A stretch of DNA of 64,000 bases from Sphingomonadales bacterium (GTDB taxonomy: Bacteria; Pseudomonadota; Alphaproteobacteria; Sphingomonadales; Govanellaceae), in assembly GCA_019455285.1 (NCBI GenBank), contig JACFMS010000014.1:9925-73924 (forward strand). Direction: 5' to 3'. Positions 50,424-55,207 of this stretch are shown here, in pieces (within the stretch, counting starts at the first letter, position 1; every line of letters begins with the position of its first letter). The translations under genes and the position numbers were made by a program. The notes under the pieces are model-generated. The model did not search any database and had not been told where the DNA came from. It saw nothing but the letters and a program-made list of their open reading frames with translations.

Positions 50424-51077
50424 ATGCGCGCCATTGGATACCTTTCGCTCTGCCTGGGAGTTGCGGCGGCGGGCTGCGCCACTTCGCCCACCCGCGAGTT
50501 GCTGGCCGATTTCGGCGCTCAGACCACCGCCTGGTCGGAGATGGGCGTTTGCGCCGGGTATGGCTGCACCACCTATTACAAGCTGGGGCTTGATGCTGGG
50601 GAGGCGGGGCGCATTTTGGCGGCCTTTGGTTCGACGCCCGCGTCACCCGCCGAGGAACGCCAAGCCATCCGTCGCGCCATCGCCGAGATCGAGCTCATCG
50701 TCGGGCCAAAGACTGGCACCGCCGGCGACGAGCCGGGGGCGGCGATCATCAACTTCTCACGCCGCGGCCAGATGGATTGCATCGACGAGTCCTTCAATAC
50801 CACTACTTATCTGAGGTTATTGGAAAAGAACGGATTTCTGCGCTTTCACCAAGTGGGCGAGCCGCTGCGGCGGGGCTATTTCCTGGATCGCTGGCCGCAT
50901 AACACGGCCACCATTATCGATCGCGCCGACGATCAACGCTATGTGGTCGATTCGTGGTTTCACGGCAATGGCGTGCCGCCGGAGATCGTGCCTGCGGAAG
51001 AGTGGCTCAAGGGCTGGCACCCTGAAACCCAGTTGCCCGCGCGCAGCAGCGATCAGACCGCGGTTATCGCTCAGTAA
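50424..51077 (+). CDS. hypothetical lipoprotein
   Basis: MRAIGYLSLCLGVAAAGC lipobox; 217 aa; I recognise no family. Confidence 0.65.
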   Translation: MRAIGYLSLCLGVAAAGCATSPTRELLADFGAQTTAWSEMGVCAGYGCTTYYKLGLDAGEAGRILAAFGSTPASPAEERQAIRRAIAEIELIVGPKTGTAGDEPGAAIINFSRRGQMDCIDESFNTTTYLRLLEKNGFLRFHQVGEPLRRGYFLDRWPHNTATIIDRADDQRYVVDSWFHGNGVPPEIVPAEEWLKGWHPETQLPARSSDQTAVIAQ

Positions 51078-51640
51078 CGGCGGATCAACATGGCGCGCCG
51101 CGCCAACGAACGCAGGGCGGCGTTGTAGACCACGGCGGCGGCATCGTCCGTACCGACCACGGTATAGCGTCCCGGCTCCGTACCCGCCAGCAGGCGGCCA
51201 TAAAGTCGCCGCCCGTCCTCTAGCTCAGCCAGGCATTCCTTGCCAACGAGGTGCGCCGCCTCCGCCACCGGCAGCGGCAGGTAGATGACCGTGTCGCCGA
51301 CCTGAAAATCGGCGGTGGGCTGGGCGATTTTCAACGCCACGGCATTATCGCCCGGAGGCTGGAGGGATAGCGTTTCCCCGGCGGCGGGGATGATCTCCCC
51401 GCCGGTCGATAAGGTGCCGGCGAACGGCACCGGGCCATCGCCGTCCATCGGCATCAACTCGGCTACAGAGCACTGCAGCGCCGCGGCGATCTTTTCCAGC
51501 CAGTCGAGGGTGACCTTGCGACTCCCGGTTTCAAGCCGGCCAATGGTCTGCGCCGTGGTCGGTTGGGGCCGGATTCGCGCGGCAACCTGATGAAGGGTCA
51601 GGCCCTTCTGTTTGCGAATCTCGCGTATATTATTGCGCAT
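51071..51640 (-). CDS. XRE-family HTH repressor with cI/LexA-like C-terminal domain
   Basis: MRNNIREIRKQKGLTLHQVAARI...TIGRLETGSRKVTLDWLEKIAAALQCSVAELM HTH_3 domain. The C-terminal beta-rich domain is of cI-like size, but I could not find a G-x-S-M/Lys dyad. Confidence 0.8.
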   Translation of the reverse strand: MRNNIREIRKQKGLTLHQVAARIRPQPTTAQTIGRLETGSRKVTLDWLEKIAAALQCSVAELMPMDGDGPVPFAGTLSTGGEIIPAAGETLSLQPPGDNAVALKIAQPTADFQVGDTVIYLPLPVAEAAHLVGKECLAELEDGRRLYGRLLAGTEPGRYTVVGTDDAAAVVYNAALRSLARRAMLIRRY

Positions 51641-51794
51641 AATAAACCTCTTTGGCTATTTTTAAGGCATTTCTGGTTTTATTTCAATAATAATCCTAAA
51701 AATATAACCAATATGGAAGAAAATGATTGACAGCCCAATCGCATCGGTGATAGCTGCCAAAATGTACCAATTTGGTAAATTTATGGAGGTGCAT

Positions 51795-52604
51795 ATGCGG
51801 CGCAACACACCGCACGATGGCAGCGGCGCGGCCAATCCTGTTGTTGGCAGAGGGGCGATACGCCTCTTGTTACGGCTAAGCGCCGGCGAGGCGGCCCAAG
51901 CCACTGATGATGGTGTTTTCCTCGGCGGCGAAGACGTGACGGCGGAGGTGGCGGCGCTGATCGCCCATGATCTGGCGGCGCGGGATCGTCGGGGTGGGGT
52001 GCGGCTGACCGCGCCGGGCGCCGTTTATGCCAAGCGCATGGCCGCGCGCTCGGCCCTCCGCCGCGCCGGGCGGCAGGGGGATACGGCGGCGCTGGCGGTG
52101 ATCGCGCCGTTTCGCGATCAGCATCAAGACATCGATATCGTGGTGACGGCTAGTGGCGACAAAGTTGCGGAACGGCGCTTCATCAACCATCGGGAATGCC
52201 CATTGGCTTGGCTGCGCCGGCGTCGCGACCGGGCCGGCCGGCCGCTCATCGACGATCGCCAGTTCGAGGCCGGCATGCACTTGCGCAATGACTTCGAGCG
52301 CGGCGGCCTATCGCCGCGGGTTACCGCCTCCTGGAGCGCGCTGCCGGTGGGTCGCGCCGGGGCGGCAAGCCGGCGCGGCGGCCTTGATCCCAGTGATAGT
52401 CAGATGGGCGCCCGTCTGCGCTTCCGCCGCGCCGTCACCGCTCTGGGGCCAGGTCTTGCCGAGGTGGCGATCCGCACCTGCTGCGCTTATGAGGGCCTGG
52501 AAGCGGTGGAGAAAAGCCTGGACTGGCCGGCGCGCTCGGGCAAGGTGGTGCTCAGCTTGGCTTTATCTCGGCTGGCCGATTATTATGGAATTGGAAAAAA
52601 ATAA
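51795..52604 (+). CDS. DUF6456-type protein, candidate GafA/GafZ-like activator
   Basis: Start at MRRNTPHDG (GGAGG 5 nt upstream). Conserved-looking INHRECPLAWLRRRRDRAGRPLIDDRQFEAGMHLRNDFERGGLSPRVTASW and LGPGLAEVAIRTCCAYEGLEAVEKSLDWPARSGKVVLSLALSRLADYYG. The family assignment is from memory only. Confidence 0.55.
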   Translation: MRRNTPHDGSGAANPVVGRGAIRLLLRLSAGEAAQATDDGVFLGGEDVTAEVAALIAHDLAARDRRGGVRLTAPGAVYAKRMAARSALRRAGRQGDTAALAVIAPFRDQHQDIDIVVTASGDKVAERRFINHRECPLAWLRRRRDRAGRPLIDDRQFEAGMHLRNDFERGGLSPRVTASWSALPVGRAGAASRRGGLDPSDSQMGARLRFRRAVTALGPGLAEVAIRTCCAYEGLEAVEKSLDWPARSGKVVLSLALSRLADYYGIGKK

Positions 52605-52653
52605 CCAAATCGGTTATTTTTATGTTGACTAATATAACGCTCATGGTTATACT
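52601..52653 (+). promoter_or_regulatory. sigma-70-type promoter of the structural operon, overlapped by palindromic operators
   Basis: TTGACT (52625-52630), a 17-nt spacer, then TATACT (52648-52653). ATAACCaaatcGGTTAT lies at 52601-52617 and ATAACGctcatGGTTAT at 52634-52650. Confidence 0.5.
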
Positions 52654-52706
52654 TTAGTCAAGATCGAGAAAAAGGTTCACGGCGATGGCGCTGAGCCAGC
52701 AAAGCG

Positions 52707-52748
52707 AAAGGCCGCTCATTACGGAGCGGCCTTTCCTGTTGTGCGTTT
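52707..52748 (+). terminator. leader terminator/attenuator hairpin between promoter and terS
   Basis: Perfect 11-bp stem AAAGGCCGCTC / GAGCGGCCTTT with a 6-nt loop, followed by CCTGTTGTGCGTTT. Confidence 0.5.
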
Positions 52749-52766: not shown

Positions 52767-53225
52767 ATGGCGAAGGCCACGAGCTGGACGCCGCGCAAGC
52801 GCGGCCAATTCCTCAGCGCGTTGCGCAAAACCGGCAATGTCACGGCGGCGGCCGAGGCGGCGGGACTGTCGCGCAGCCAGGCCTATCAGCTGCGGCGCAG
52901 CGATGACGGTTTTCGCCAAGATTGGGACGACGCCTTGCTGGCGGCGATCGACGATCTGGAGGAGGAGCTGCGGCGTCGCGCGCTGCACGGGGTCGAGCAG
53001 CCGATCTACTACGGTGGTAAGGAGTGCGGCCGGGTGCGGACCTATAACGACGCCCTGGGCATGTTCCTGCTGCGCGCCCGCCGCCGGGAGCTGTTCGACA
53101 AAGCAGGCGGGGATGAGTTGGCAACCGCCATCGACGCCTCGCCGCTAGCCGAGATCCAAGAACGCTTGAAGCGGTTGCGCGCCCGTCAGGCCAAGGGCCG
53201 GAAATCAGACGGAGATAAACCGTGA
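52767..53225 (+). CDS. terminase small subunit (HTH type)
   Basis: WTPRKRGQFLSALRKTGNVTAAAEAAGLSRSQAYQLRRSDDGFRQDWDDAL...; GTGA overlap with terL. Confidence 0.78.
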   Translation: MAKATSWTPRKRGQFLSALRKTGNVTAAAEAAGLSRSQAYQLRRSDDGFRQDWDDALLAAIDDLEEELRRRALHGVEQPIYYGGKECGRVRTYNDALGMFLLRARRRELFDKAGGDELATAIDASPLAEIQERLKRLRARQAKGRKSDGDKP

Positions 53226-54550
53226 GCGGCGGCGAGGCGGAGCAACGCTCGATAGCCGAGGCGGTGGCTGCCCTGCCGACGGGCGATGAGGCGGATATCC
53301 TGGGCGCGCTGAAGATCGCCGACCTCACAGAGCTTCTGTATGAGTGGCGGTTCTGGGCCCGGCCCCAGCAGCTGCCGCCGCCGGGAGAATGGGCGACCTG
53401 GCTCATTCTGGCCGGCCGCGGCTTTGGCAAGACCCGCACCGGGGCGGAGTGGGTGCGCAGTCTGGCGGAACGCGCCAGCCCCGGTTTTCGCATCGCGTTG
53501 GTGGGAGAGACGGCGGCCGATGTGCGGCAGGTGATGGTGGAGGGTGAATCAGGCCTCCTGCCCAGCGCCCGGCCGGACTTCAGGCCCCGCTTCGAACCGT
53601 CGAAGCGCTGCCTAACTTGGCCCCAGGGCGCGCAGGCGTTTCTCTACTCGGCGGATGATCCGGAGCAACTGCGTGGGCCGCAGCATCAGGCGGCTTGGTG
53701 CGACGAGCTGGCGAAATGGCGGCGCGCCGAGGAAACCTGGAGCAACTTGCAACTGGGCCTGCGTCTCGGCGAGCGGCCGCAAACGGTGGTGACGACGACC
53801 CCTAGGCCATTGAAGTTACTAAAAGATTTACTCGCCGACCCGATGACCGTGGTGACTCGCGGCTCGACCTATGACAACCGCGGCAATCTGCCGCCGGCGT
53901 TTTTCCGGCAGGTGGTGGAAAAGTACGCCGGCACGCGACTGGGCCGGCAGGAGATCGAAGCCGAAATTCTCGAAGACACTCCGGGCGCGCTGTGGTCGCG
54001 AGACTTGGTGCAATCCTGCCGCGCCGCCGGCGCGCCGATCATGCGCCGGGTGGTGGTGGGCGTCGATCCGCCGGTGACCGGCGGCGAGAAGGCTGATGCC
54101 TGCGGCATCGTGGTGGCCGGCGCGGGCGAGGATGGCCGCTATTACGTGCTGGCGGACCGCACCACGGTGGGAGCCAGCGTCCACGGCTGGGCGCAGGCGG
54201 CGGTCGCCGCTTACCACGACCACGAAGCCGACCGTCTGGTGGCGGAGGTGAACAATGGCGGCGATCTGGTGGCCGCCGTCATTCGCCAGATTGACTCGAC
54301 CATCAGCTATCGCGCGGTACGGGCCAGCCGCGGCAAATGGGCGCGCGCCGAACCCATCGCCGCGTTATATGAACAAGGTCGGGTTCGCCACCTGGCGGCG
54401 CTGCCGGCGCTGGAGGAGCAGATGACCAGTTACGTGCCGGGCGGGGATATGGCCTATGGCAGCCCGGACCGGCTGGACGCTCTGGTGTGGGCGCTGAGCG
54501 AGTTGGCGCTCGGCACAAGCGCCAACCCGCGATTACGAATGGTCAGCTAA
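53222..54550 (+). CDS. terminase large subunit (GTA/HK97-associated type)
   Basis: 442 aa. Walker A-like ILAGRGFGKTRTGAEW, Walker B-like AAWCDELAKW, and a C-terminal RNaseH-like nuclease (VGVDPP...ACGIVVAG...). Confidence 0.92.
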   Translation: MSGGEAEQRSIAEAVAALPTGDEADILGALKIADLTELLYEWRFWARPQQLPPPGEWATWLILAGRGFGKTRTGAEWVRSLAERASPGFRIALVGETAADVRQVMVEGESGLLPSARPDFRPRFEPSKRCLTWPQGAQAFLYSADDPEQLRGPQHQAAWCDELAKWRRAEETWSNLQLGLRLGERPQTVVTTTPRPLKLLKDLLADPMTVVTRGSTYDNRGNLPPAFFRQVVEKYAGTRLGRQEIEAEILEDTPGALWSRDLVQSCRAAGAPIMRRVVVGVDPPVTGGEKADACGIVVAGAGEDGRYYVLADRTTVGASVHGWAQAAVAAYHDHEADRLVAEVNNGGDLVAAVIRQIDSTISYRAVRASRGKWARAEPIAALYEQGRVRHLAALPALEEQMTSYVPGGDMAYGSPDRLDALVWALSELALGTSANPRLRMVS

Positions 54551-54551
54551 G

Positions 54552-54902
54552 TTATTGAGCGCGCGCGGCTTTATAGGCGCGAATGGCCTCATTGAATTCG
54601 TTGCCCGTCGCCACTTCGGCATCAACCGCTGCGTTATAGCGTTCGACAAAGCTTTTCTGCAGATCGGCCGTCAGTTGTTCCTTGGGAATCAAGGCTTCCT
54701 GGGCCTGCAGGCAATTGCGAAACGTCTCGCTGTCGGCGAGGAATTTTTTAACCGCGCTCTGGGCAGCGATCATATCCTCCTGGGTGGCGGCGGCGCCGCT
54801 AGGGATGGCCGGCGACGGCGGCCGGGTGCAATCGTCAGCAAAGGCGCTGCCGGCACTGAGTGCTAAGGTCATAGTAAAGGCAATGGTCACAATAGATTTC
54901 AT
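54552..54902 (-). CDS. small secreted protein on the opposite strand (moron-like)
   Basis: MKSIVTIAFTMTLALSAGSAFA signal (GGAGA 8 nt upstream). The helical mature part has two Cys. Convergent with terL with a 1-nt gap. Confidence 0.62.
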   Translation of the reverse strand: MKSIVTIAFTMTLALSAGSAFADDCTRPPSPAIPSGAAATQEDMIAAQSAVKKFLADSETFRNCLQAQEALIPKEQLTADLQKSFVERYNAAVDAEVATGNEFNEAIRAYKAARAQ

Positions 54903-55207
54903 GAAGCAACGTCTCCAATGAGCAAACCCACGACCGACCGGGATCGGCCGCAACGGAGGCGGATTATAAACTGACGGGCCGGCTAAAGGCTAGCCCATCA
55001 CGATTCCATTAATCACCACCAAGTTCGACGACATTCGGGTCGCGGAGCCAGGCTTCCGGCTCGAACGGCGGCGGCGAGGGCATGCCCTGCAGTTTTTCAT
55101 GACAGGCCCTGACCCCAAGTGCAGACCCGCATGACCTTCGCCGCCCGCGACTATTCGGAGTCCAGACCCATTATTTATGAGTCTGGACCCTAGATGTGGA
55201 GAGACAA

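Follow-up and report, generated by a model that had tools for sequence, protein, structure and literature searches.

A cI-like repressor and a GafZ-type regulator at the head of an RcGTA-type cluster in Sphingomonadales: a variant of the RogA/GafYZ control circuit

Gene transfer agents (GTAs) represent domesticated phages which ship host DNA, moving it between bacteria, and their control is understood in just two model species. How such an element is kept silent and then released is the question raised by the region around 51 kb of the 64-kb stretch of DNA analysed here (the window), which forms the regulatory head of a gene transfer agent of the RcGTA type in the order Sphingomonadales (in the GTDB sense). 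In this region the gene of a 189-aa repressor and a gafZ-type gene encoding a 269-aa protein are divergently oriented, and behind the latter come a near-consensus sigma-70 promoter, a leader of 107 nt containing an intrinsic terminator, and terS and terL (Table 1). The Pfam matches reproduce the RcGTA-type order, i.e. terS, terL, HK97 portal, g3.5 (DUF6127), S78 protease, capsid, connector, tail tube and GTA-gp10, in a cluster that is visible up to the window end (64000), its tail end falling outside. A divergent repressor/regulator switch had been claimed in an earlier reading of these letters (the original prediction), and the hits from terS to GTA-gp10 place that switch at the head of an RcGTA-type cluster. 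The locus is a variant of the RogA/GafYZ control circuit known from Caulobacter.

Table 1. Coordinates of genes and putative control elements at the head of the cluster (positions in the window).
Feature	Positions	Strand	Remarks
Repressor gene, 189 aa	51071..51640	-	HTH_3 N-domain and S24-like C-terminal beta-barrel without catalytic serine; RogA-like by described features
Box C, TAAACCTCTTTGGCTAT	51643..51659		covers predicted start and ribosome-binding sites of repressor gene; may serve as autoregulatory operator; 14.4 bits
Putative repressor-gene promoter	51658..51687	-	TTGAAA 51687-51682, A/T-rich -10 at ~51665-51658; consensus scan, hexamers kept in sister species
Box A, ATAACCAATATGGAAGA	51704..51720		between both divergent promoters; left arm good, right arm degenerate; 15.8 bits
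Putative gafZ promoter, TTGACA-N17-ATAGCT	51727..51755	+	both hexamers kept in sister species, spacer diverged
Box B, TGTACCAATTTGGTAAA	51763..51779		~+1 to +17 of gafZ transcript; candidate main operator shutting off gafZ; 24.8 bits
gafZ-type gene, 269 aa	51795..52604	+	winged-helix-like N-domain and DUF6456 C-domain
O1, ATAACCAAATCGGTTAT	52601..52617		perfect box, centre at ~-51 of GTA promoter; gafZ stop codon inside left arm; 23.5 bits, rank 2 in genome
GTA structural promoter, TTGACT-N17-TATACT	52625..52653	+	TTGACT 52625-52630, TATACT 52648-52653; 10/12 consensus positions
Spacer palindrome, ATAACGCTCATGGTTAT	52634..52650		candidate low-affinity second operator 33 bp from O1, or candidate GafZ-binding element; 3.1 bits
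Conserved initially transcribed element, AAGATCGAGAAAAAGG	52660..52675	+	order consensus cA(A/T)GGTCGAGAAtTGGG; conserved columns +1 to +16, 27 promoters
Leader intrinsic terminator	52706..52747	+	12-bp stem GAAAGGCCGCTC/GAGCGGCCTTTC, then U-rich tail; ~30 nt before terS
terS and terL, first RcGTA-type cluster genes	52767..54550	+	terS 52767-53225, terL 53222-54550; Pfam Terminase_6N/6C

The 189-aa protein displays the architecture of RogA, an N-terminal HTH joined to a C-terminal LexA/cI-like domain, as judged by Pfam and Foldseek. Its HTH_3 domain is recognized by Pfam with an E-value of 8.8e-12, and the stretch TTAQTIGRLE, which according to the Pfam HTH_3 alignment lies within the DNA-binding motif, does not vary among 30 sequences, in parallel with the invariant box described below. 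The fold predicted by AlphaFold2 (pLDDT 93) is cI/LexA-like, the best Foldseek matches in the PDB being lambda cI (3bdn/7jvt) and LexA (3jso) for the full-length model and 2ho0 and 1jhh for the C-domain alone. A sequence search of the PDB returned HTH domains only, and a residue-level profile alignment of the C-domain to LexA was unreliable (probability <1%). The XRE/cI-like repressor originally proposed is upheld by the HTH_3 match and by the fold, but the check for Peptidase_S24 suggested with it gave no Pfam match at E <= 0.01. In fact, residues 93-177 of the repressor contain no serine and none is conserved in that segment across 30 homologues; the key catalytic residues of S24 peptidases are absent, as in RogA, and with a serine-free barrel segment and no Pfam S24 match the protein lacks the Ser-Lys dyad of the self-cleaving lambda cI and LexA repressors. 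Since there is no S24 catalytic serine, RecA-triggered self-cleavage of the lambda style is unlikely.

The identity of the divergent partner suggested originally was confirmed by Pfam, which assigns DUF6456 (PF20057) to residues 130-265 of the 269-aa protein with 156.2 bits against a cut-off of 26.3 (E 6.5e-46). This is the sole DUF6456 gene of the genome. Long GafZ ORFs located downstream of a separate gafY in other orders align, in their N-terminal part, with the N-domain, and the structural model, with a pLDDT of 68, built from only 5 sequences and with weak fold matches, suggests a winged-helix-like N-domain and a sigma-region-4-like C-terminal HTH; the local match to sigma region 4 (3vfz, TM 0.85 over 58 residues) is likewise weak, with a Foldseek E > 0.6. 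A profile made from 4 GafY sequences matched only DnaA, both in the source genome and in 41 genomes of the order, and neither a GafY protein resembling DnaA domain IV, as in GafY-GafZ pairs, nor an N-terminal domain of that type, as in fused GafA, was found. A fused GafY-GafZ of the kind represented by GafA of RcGTA was ruled out on these grounds, the N-domain being winged-helix-like and homologous to long GafZ and the GafY profile leading to DnaA only. Judged from its domains, the protein appears to be better described as a long GafZ-type antiterminator than as a GafA-type activator; of the GafA/GafZ-type activator first put forward, the DUF6456 and GafZ-type character is retained, but the GafA type is not, since the DnaA-like GafY module is missing order-wide. 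The genes for the repressor and the DUF6456 protein occur in exactly the same 27 of 41 genomes of the order, and they are divergent neighbours in all 26 testable loci (of 28, contig permitting) and in 75 of 80 further loci.

The two genes and the cluster share a 17-bp box with the consensus aTAACC-N5-GGTTAt. A matrix for which only the boxes located upstream of the terS promoters of 26 species were used finds only four matches of 14 bits or more in the 64-kb window, which are Boxes C, A and B in the divergent region (centres 51651, 51712 and 51771) and O1 at the GTA promoter (centre 52609); two further boxes are located at an endolysin-holin promoter on another contig. The top three matches in the 3.3-Mb genome lie at the gafZ promoter (Box B, rank 1), the terS promoter and this endolysin-holin promoter, and those ranking below them are inside coding regions, at a level equal to that of the reversed-genome control. 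Four such matches (C33, C48, C44 and C13) were dropped as regulon members and are treated as chance, because they are found within coding regions or beside unrelated genes. Chance palindromes were ruled out by this ranking together with shuffles: of 5000 shuffled versions of the 154-bp divergent region, none attained 24.7 bits or contained three matches, and ATAACS-N5-GGTTAT with at most 2 mismatches gave 9 matches where 2.4 are expected, a count attained in 0 of 100 shuffles. In the sister species Box B is conserved, Box A is unchanged and Box C has one arm altered. The centre of Box A lies 15 bp upstream of the -35 hexamer of the gafZ promoter, the same geometry as that of O1 at the terS promoter. 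No CtrA or IHF consensus sites were seen by eye in the divergent region. The idea of a box family common to the divergent region and the structural promoter proved to be real, and the motif is kept in orthologous loci across the order. All four palindromes quoted in support of it exist, and each is unique in the window; ATAACCAAATCGGTTAT and ATAACGCTCATGGTTAT are exactly at 52601-52617 and 52634-52650, but two had been placed one position too early, TACCAATTTGGTA at 51764-51776 instead of 51765-51777 and ATAACCAATATGGAAG at 51703-51718 instead of 51704-51719. Box C, at 51643, had been missed.

In the Sphingomonadaceae, the box accompanies the repressor gene in 70-odd loci, 24-36 bp from the start codon; a degenerate second box seen there, 32-33 bp away from the main box, was discarded, being more simply read as the -35 hexamer (TTGCCA) of the repressor promoter. 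In gafZ promoters of the present family, the box is placed within the spacer or at +1. In endolysin promoters of relatives, which resemble TTGACA-N17-TATAAT, the box is located upstream of the -35, in the spacer, or over the -10/+1; in the present genome and its sister species this promoter has a two-site layout, with the second site scoring 19.6 bits and the centres 31 bp apart. Endolysin homologues in families without the module have no box. Cultivable carriers of the module among relatives include Rhodothalassium salexigens DSM 2132 and a laboratory Sphingobium strain. In a Sphingomonas species that keeps a repressor homologue without DUF6456, the upstream box is decayed (n=1). A link between the presence of the box at the terS promoter and that of the regulator's N-terminal domain was ruled out, as Sphingomonadaceae with a DUF6456-only regulator keep the box at the true GTA promoter; the first terS matches in this family were stand-alone paralogues.

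The promoter facing terS, also predicted originally, is real, and it is one of four promoter-like sites in 2.3 kb against 0.5 expected. Its -35 is TTGAC in 26 of the 27 aligned species and TTTAC in the remaining one, and of the -10 only TA is conserved; the term "strong constitutive" may apply to the GTA promoter of this genus only, the -10 being poor in many families. The box is centred 15-17 bp upstream of the -35 in 26/27 species. The spacer palindrome has perfect outer arms, but CG replaces the invariant CC core, which accounts for its low score; among shuffled promoter segments this score falls at about the 90th-95th percentile. The left arm has its homologue in an order-wide spacer element, GTSACG (aGCGTSACGnT), and most other families have GTSACG at this position without a matching right arm. 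In Caulobacter, GafZ binds a palindrome between the -35 and the -10 and brings about terminator read-through (Tran and Le 2024, PMC11150451). A single family overlapping the structural promoter is thus only weakly true, strong for O1 and poor for the site in the spacer and -10, and operator occlusion of the -10 was not supported, the good box being upstream of the -35 and the spacer site a poor family member on an order-wide element at the position of Caulobacter GafZ. Downstream, the conserved initially transcribed element may act as a pause or loading signal. The leader folds with -44.7 kcal/mol (z -4.2), and in the sister species the terminator stem is kept while the loop is altered. Terminator-like hairpins are present in the leaders of at least 14 of 27 species; the U-tract of the one in the window is interrupted (UUUCCUGUUGUG). 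An Rfam search with the leader hairpin gave no family, only sub-threshold chance matches. This conserved terminator between promoter and terS had been omitted from the original account.

Based on these sequence comparisons, we consider it probable that the repressor binds the boxes and that GafZ loads at the consensus sigma-70 promoter and reads through the leader terminator. In most cells, the repressor would occupy the strongest box, at the gafZ start site, and keep gafZ off; the weaker box at its own start site would serve for autoregulation, and the repressor would also hold the lysis promoter directly, and to some degree that of the GTA. Residual transcription from the GTA promoter would end at the leader terminator. 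Once repression is relieved, by a signal other than RecA-type self-cleavage, GafZ would be made, bind the promoter spacer at GTSACG (in this genus part of the 52634-52650 palindrome) and join RNA polymerase, carrying it through the leader and later terminators as Caulobacter GafZ does. The involvement of a GafY-type activator is not expected, because none is found in the order and the promoters already have a consensus -35. The boxed endolysin promoters are strong and drive lethal genes, for which a repressor would be needed in the off state. The box is ascribed to the repressor, as its likely operator, by position and conservation.

Other readings of the same boxes must be weighed against this one. 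According to the original prediction, the repressor binds 52601-52617 and 52634-52650 cooperatively (centres 33 bp apart) and occludes the terS spacer and -10 as the main control, with the DUF6456 protein as a conventional activator. The outer arms ATAAC/GTTAT are indeed identical at both sites, the sister species shows hardly any change in either, pairwise cooperativity could be supported by a cI-like C-domain, and the endolysin promoter of both species shares the two-site layout with a strong second site. Nevertheless, we find this model doubtful: the spacer site, at 3.1 bits and devoid of the CC core, is hardly distinguished from shuffled segments, most other families have GTSACG there without the right arm, the position is that of GafZ binding in Caulobacter, and the conserved leader terminator is ignored. 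The more general lambda-like logic of a strong promoter under a repressor fares better at the lysis genes than at terS, where the box lies upstream of the -35; the endolysin boxes over the spacer, -10 or +1 look like repressor operators and lend this idea comparative support.

Alternatively, the box could be the binding site of the DUF6456 protein, acting in positive autoregulation and in recruitment or loading at the GTA and lysis promoters, with the repressor on another, unrecognised site. The boxed promoters, i.e. the regulator's own, the main cluster and an accessory lysis locus, are the GTA-induced set and resemble the targets of GafY in Caulobacter and of GafA in Rhodobacter rather than those of RogA. 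Moreover, the fixed distance from the box to the -35 of the GTA promoter (26 species) is seen more typically with activators or loading sites than with operators, a CC...GG core is likewise found in the Caulobacter GafZ element GCGCC-N4-GGCGC, and the box persists in Sphingomonadaceae with a DUF6456-only regulator; the single Sphingomonas with a repressor homologue, no DUF6456 and a decayed box fits a tie to GafZ as well as one to the repressor. On the other hand, the box covers the -10/+1 or the spacer at several gafZ and endolysin promoters, which an activator would block there, the strongest box is downstream of the gafZ start site, nothing else conserved would remain to keep the lysis genes off, and no other conserved palindrome that could be the repressor's operator is visible in the divergent region, so that we regard this assignment as unlikely. 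Binding of the boxes by an unlinked global regulator, for instance of the cell cycle or of stress, and by neither protein of the locus, would recall the control of GTA production by global regulators such as CtrA in Rhodobacter (PMC9632790, background). This is very improbable, given that the best boxes of the genome are found only at three GTA-related promoters, the rest being at control level, that the box travels with the repressor gene in the Sphingomonadaceae, and that it is missing at endolysin homologues of module-less families.

Returning to repressor-bound boxes and a GafZ that loads at the promoter, we tentatively extend the proposal to Sphingomonadales at large, as a possibility rather than an expectation: GTA control might dispense with a dedicated activator, a non-cleavable cI-like repressor using one 17-bp operator to gate its own and the gafZ promoters, the particle promoter and the lysis promoter, while a consensus-type promoter would constantly make a short terminated leader RNA and GafZ alone would act in a Q-like manner at the spacer and at an early transcribed, possibly pause, signal. 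If true, the circuit of the lambda late genes would have been re-created in a domesticated element. The locus supplies an order-wide cis layout, comprising operator box, promoter, spacer element, early transcribed element and leader terminator, and for Caulobacter GafYZ no binding motif could be predicted. The suggested circuit, made up of just a repressor and an antiterminator and lacking GafY, could be reconstituted in vitro from two proteins plus RNA polymerase, and both the loading of GafZ onto RNA polymerase and the silencing of lysis genes by the GTA become testable. In addition, the box may be used as a marker for accessory GTA genes, such as the endolysin-holin locus, in Sphingomonadales genomes.

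Among known systems, the closest comparison is with RogA-GafYZ of Caulobacter (PMC9632790, PMC11150451), with which the locus shares, by described features, a LexA/cI-like repressor in which an HTH is joined to a non-catalytic S24-like domain, a regulator with DUF6456 (GafZ), a candidate regulator-binding position between the -35 and -10 of the GTA promoter, terminators that need read-through, and repressor homologues that co-occur with GTA genes. The differences lie in arrangement and in sites. The present repressor gene adjoins the regulator gene divergently at the cluster head, whereas the three loci of Caulobacter are unlinked; the box is ACC-N5-GGT instead of GGAA-N4-TTCC and recurs at the promoters of the structural and lysis genes, in contrast to the binding of RogA, which is confined to the gafYZ promoter and CCNA_02002, an unrelated gene (Gozzi et al. 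2022, PMC9632790). Furthermore, GafY is missing and an IHF-dependent upstream element is not evident, the GTA -35 is a consensus hexamer in place of AATCAT, and the terminator precedes the first gene, within the leader, instead of following it. GafA of Rhodobacter capsulatus, with a DUF6456-type C-terminal DNA-binding region, is likewise a direct regulator of an RcGTA-type cluster, binding near core elements of both the GTA promoter and its own (Fogg 2019, PMC6363796; Sherlock and Fogg 2022, PMC9638019); it is, however, a 382-aa fusion with an N-terminal DnaA-like DNA-binding domain, a module which the 269-aa protein does not have, and no linked repressor such as the present one is described for RcGTA. 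GafA also has a part that binds RNA polymerase omega. Direct repression of gafYZ by XRE-family HTH proteins is described for Rtr/Cdx of Caulobacter and TgrL of phage phiCbK, CdxB also repressing a lysis system needed for GTA release (PMC10688885; PMC13236601); the available text of these reports presents small paralogous XRE factors with broad regulons and mentions no S24-like domain, in contrast to the single dedicated cI-like repressor linked here to the regulator gene.

Lambda cI together with Q, PR' and tR' offers the remaining parallel, in that the divergent control region contains several operators of a cI-fold repressor (candidates at the present locus), a strong late promoter lies closely upstream of a terminator, and the DNA site of the antiterminator, likewise a candidate here, is between the -35 and the -10. 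A conserved early transcribed element containing a -10-like hexamer adds to this likeness. Yet the repressor of the present locus is predicted to be unable to cleave itself, GafZ has no sequence relationship with Q, the putative operators are ~60 bp apart and not adjacent as in lambda, the box also marks the late and lysis promoters, and the element under control is not a phage but a domesticated GTA.

The gene order downstream of the switch is that of an RcGTA-type gene transfer agent (GTA), with terL followed at its 3' side by genes encoding an HK97-type portal, DUF6127, an S78 prohead protease, the capsid, a connector, head-completion and tail-completion proteins, the tail tube and 'GTA-gp10'. 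Within a genome of approximately 61% G+C, the switch itself occupies two A+T-rich gaps with G+C contents of 36% and 48%. Between terL and the portal gene, the opposite strand harbors a gene (54552-54953, minus strand) encoding a 133-aa protein with a signal-peptide-like N-terminus and no Pfam match.

Components of the switch and associated loci (window positions unless another contig is named)
Feature	Position	Strand	Remarks
Repressor gene	51071-51640	-	189 aa
gafZ-type regulator gene	51795-52604	+	269 aa, GGAGG ahead of start
Gap between regulator gene and terS			162 bp
terS	52767-53225		
terL	53222-54550		
Endolysin-holin locus (L127)	G000 (the window's genome), contig C23:27227-28179		outside the window

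By its named relatives (Rhodothalassium, Iodidimonas, Pedomonas, Sphingomonas and Sphingobium), the window belongs to the Sphingomonadales in the GTDB sense. Among 41 genomes from ten families of this order, the DUF6456 and repressor genes occur in exactly the same 27 genomes and are divergent neighbors wherever contig boundaries permit (26 of 28 loci), an adjacency also found in 75 of 80 further loci and in five genomes of other orders. The regulator gene is directly followed by terS and terL in most families; in the Sphingomonadaceae the regulator consists of DUF6456 only and the GTA cluster is located elsewhere. Several Sphingomonadaceae loci (L023-L027 and L033-L037) display a motif, cTTTCCTACAg, upstream of gafZ and of stand-alone terS-like paralogues, present in 4-6 copies per genome with no terL after them; this motif may be a -10-like promoter element.

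A single recurring element, the 17-bp palindrome (a)TAACC-N5-GGTTA(t), hereafter the box, was identified in the intergenic regions of the 28 loci read, with one or two copies between the divergent genes and one upstream of the terS promoter. The 27 aligned terS promoters share a constant architecture, in which the box centre lies 15-17 bp upstream of the -35 element (TTGAC in 26, TTTAC in the other) and is followed by an A/T-rich linker, a spacer element aGCGTSACGnT, a -10 element with TA alone conserved, and CA in the start region. A matrix built from the boxes upstream of terS promoters yielded only four matches of at least 14 bits in the window, at 51643, 51704, 51763 and 52601, and the window sites 51763 and 52601, together with one on contig 23, rank as the top three of the whole 3.3-Mb assembly; the other high-scoring matches fall within genes, at a level equal to that of the reversed-genome control. 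The contig 23 box lies 8 bp upstream of a TTGAAA-N17-TATAAT promoter ahead of genes for an M15-type endolysin and a holin-like membrane protein, probably the GTA lysis cassette, and a second strong box (19.6 bits) occupies the spacer of this promoter, both being kept in the sister species. Boxed endolysin promoters were also observed at L129, L130 and L134, in three genomes (G002, G005 and G035) where the repressor and DUF6456 genes were not found; as these assemblies are 72-85% complete, that locus is probably just missing from them.

The 189-aa protein carries an HTH_3 domain (Pfam, E 8.8e-12), and the closest full-length PDB folds to its confident model (pLDDT 93) are lambda repressor and LexA, the C-domain resembling the LexA/cI cleavage domain. 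No Pfam S24 match was obtained for this protein, its residues 93-177 contain no serine, and no conserved serine is found in the corresponding segment of 30 repressor homologues. Aligned to Pfam HTH_3, the stretch TTAQTIGRLE falls in the DNA-binding motif, and it does not vary across the order. In Sphingomonas oleivorans (L056 3440-3500), whose genome has no DUF6456 gene, a homologue is retained with this stretch intact, the right arm of its upstream box having been lost.

Judging from sequence, the repressor is probably the protein that binds the box. Within this repressor/gafZ family the boxes of gafZ promoters occupy the spacer or the start site, the strongest box of the window spanning +1 to +17, and at the endolysin promoters of relatives the box shifts from upstream of the -35 to the spacer of TTGACA-N17-TATTAT or to immediately after TATAAT; shifting placement across near-consensus core promoters is a hallmark of operators. 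Lysis genes behind strong promoters require a factor present in the off state, the endolysin homologues of families lacking the module carry no box, and both TTAQTIGRLE and the box are invariant order-wide. Nevertheless, the boxed promoters as a set are more like the GafY targets of Caulobacter than those of RogA, whose binding is confined to the gafYZ promoter and one further gene (PMC9632790). Moreover, at the terS promoter the box stands at a constant distance from the -35, as would be expected of a recruitment site, and the Sphingomonas genome that lost DUF6456 and kept the repressor homologue has a decayed box. That the GafZ-type protein occupies the box instead is doubtful, and binding by an unlinked factor is highly improbable.

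The divergent region contains three boxes, centred at 51651, 51712 and 51771 (spacing 61 and 59 bp), the first (box C) covering the predicted start site of the repressor gene, the last (box B) that of gafZ, and the middle one (box A) lying upstream of both -35 elements. Given their ranking (B, 24.8 bits; A, 15.8; C, 14.4), gafZ would be tightly repressed and the repressor gene mildly autoregulated. Promoter hexamers and boxes are kept in the sister species, whose gafZ promoter spacer has diverged. All four palindromes of the original prediction are present and unique, although two coordinates were off by one base.

The promoter previously proposed for terS, TTGACT-N17-TATACT (52625-52653), is indeed the top sigma-70 match of the region. 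Since the gafZ stop codon (52602-52604), here and in several other families, falls within the left arm of the upstream box, regulator-gene transcription runs directly into the GTA promoter, and no terminator was found between the two. At L015 and L022 (family f4) this gap is filled by tandem units of ~45 bp containing ctcgtcatccgccgacttgatcggc. Downstream, an early transcribed stretch, cA(A/T)GGTCGAGAAtTGGG (52660-52675 in the window), is conserved at 27 loci and includes a -10-like hexamer (GAGAAT consensus, GAGAAA in the window), possibly akin to the sigma-dependent pause of lambda Q loading; the stretch is a candidate signal for promoter-proximal pausing or for loading. The promoter-overlapping site ATAACGCTCATGGTTAT (52634-52650), first read as one of the palindromes, has perfect outer arms but CG instead of the invariant CC, and its 3.1 bits fall in the range of shuffled sequences. 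With the upstream box at a distance of 33 bp, it forms a two-site layout like that of the endolysin promoter (31 bp), and its left arm is the local form of the GTSACG spacer element common to all families, the matching right arm being absent in most. GafZ of Caulobacter binds a palindromic element situated between -35 and -10, and mutation of this element abolishes GafZ loading and GTA production (PMC11150451). The site is a candidate for either a weak cooperative operator or a GafZ loading site; if both, the repressor and GafZ would compete there.

A further layer, missing from the original account of the switch, is a leader terminator: a 12-bp G+C-rich hairpin (52706-52735) with a U-rich tail, ~47 nt past the predicted start (~52660) and 30 nt before terS, in a leader folding at -44.7 kcal/mol (z -4.2) and matching no Rfam family. 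A short leader RNA is predicted. The stem is identical in the sister species, the loop and preceding leader having diverged, and for at least 14 of 27 species, drawn from several families, the leader contains a terminator-like hairpin. GafZ is an antiterminator working with NusA, NusG and NusE (PMC11150451), and the leader terminator would fit such a role here.

The DUF6456 assignment of the 269-aa protein, made in the original account, was confirmed (E 6.5e-46). In other alphaproteobacterial orders the same neighborhood comprises the repressor gene, a divergent small DnaA-domain-IV-like gene (GafY type) and a 280-337-aa ORF, the C-terminal part of which is DUF6456 and the N-terminal part of which aligns to the N-terminal domain of the window protein. 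A profile of four GafY proteins from such loci matched DnaA alone in the window's genome, and one DnaA-sized frame per genome and nothing else in the 41 genomes. A GafY-GafZ fusion of the Rhodobacter GafA type was consequently rejected, and because of this N-domain homology and the profile finding only DnaA, the protein is, by sequence comparison, a long GafZ in an order without GafY, where GafZ appears to be the only GTA regulator. In its model (shallow alignment, pLDDT 68) the N-domain is winged-helix-like and the C-domain helical, with a local, statistically weak resemblance to sigma region 4.

No published description of this arrangement or of the box was found in the literature. The switch represents GTA control of the RogA/GafZ kind. 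In contrast to Caulobacter, the repressor and regulator genes are here linked at the cluster head, the operator sequence is different, boxes are also found at structural and lysis promoters, GafY is absent, the -35 of the GTA promoter is consensus, and a terminator lies within the leader; in contrast to GafA of Rhodobacter, the regulator has no DnaA-like domain.
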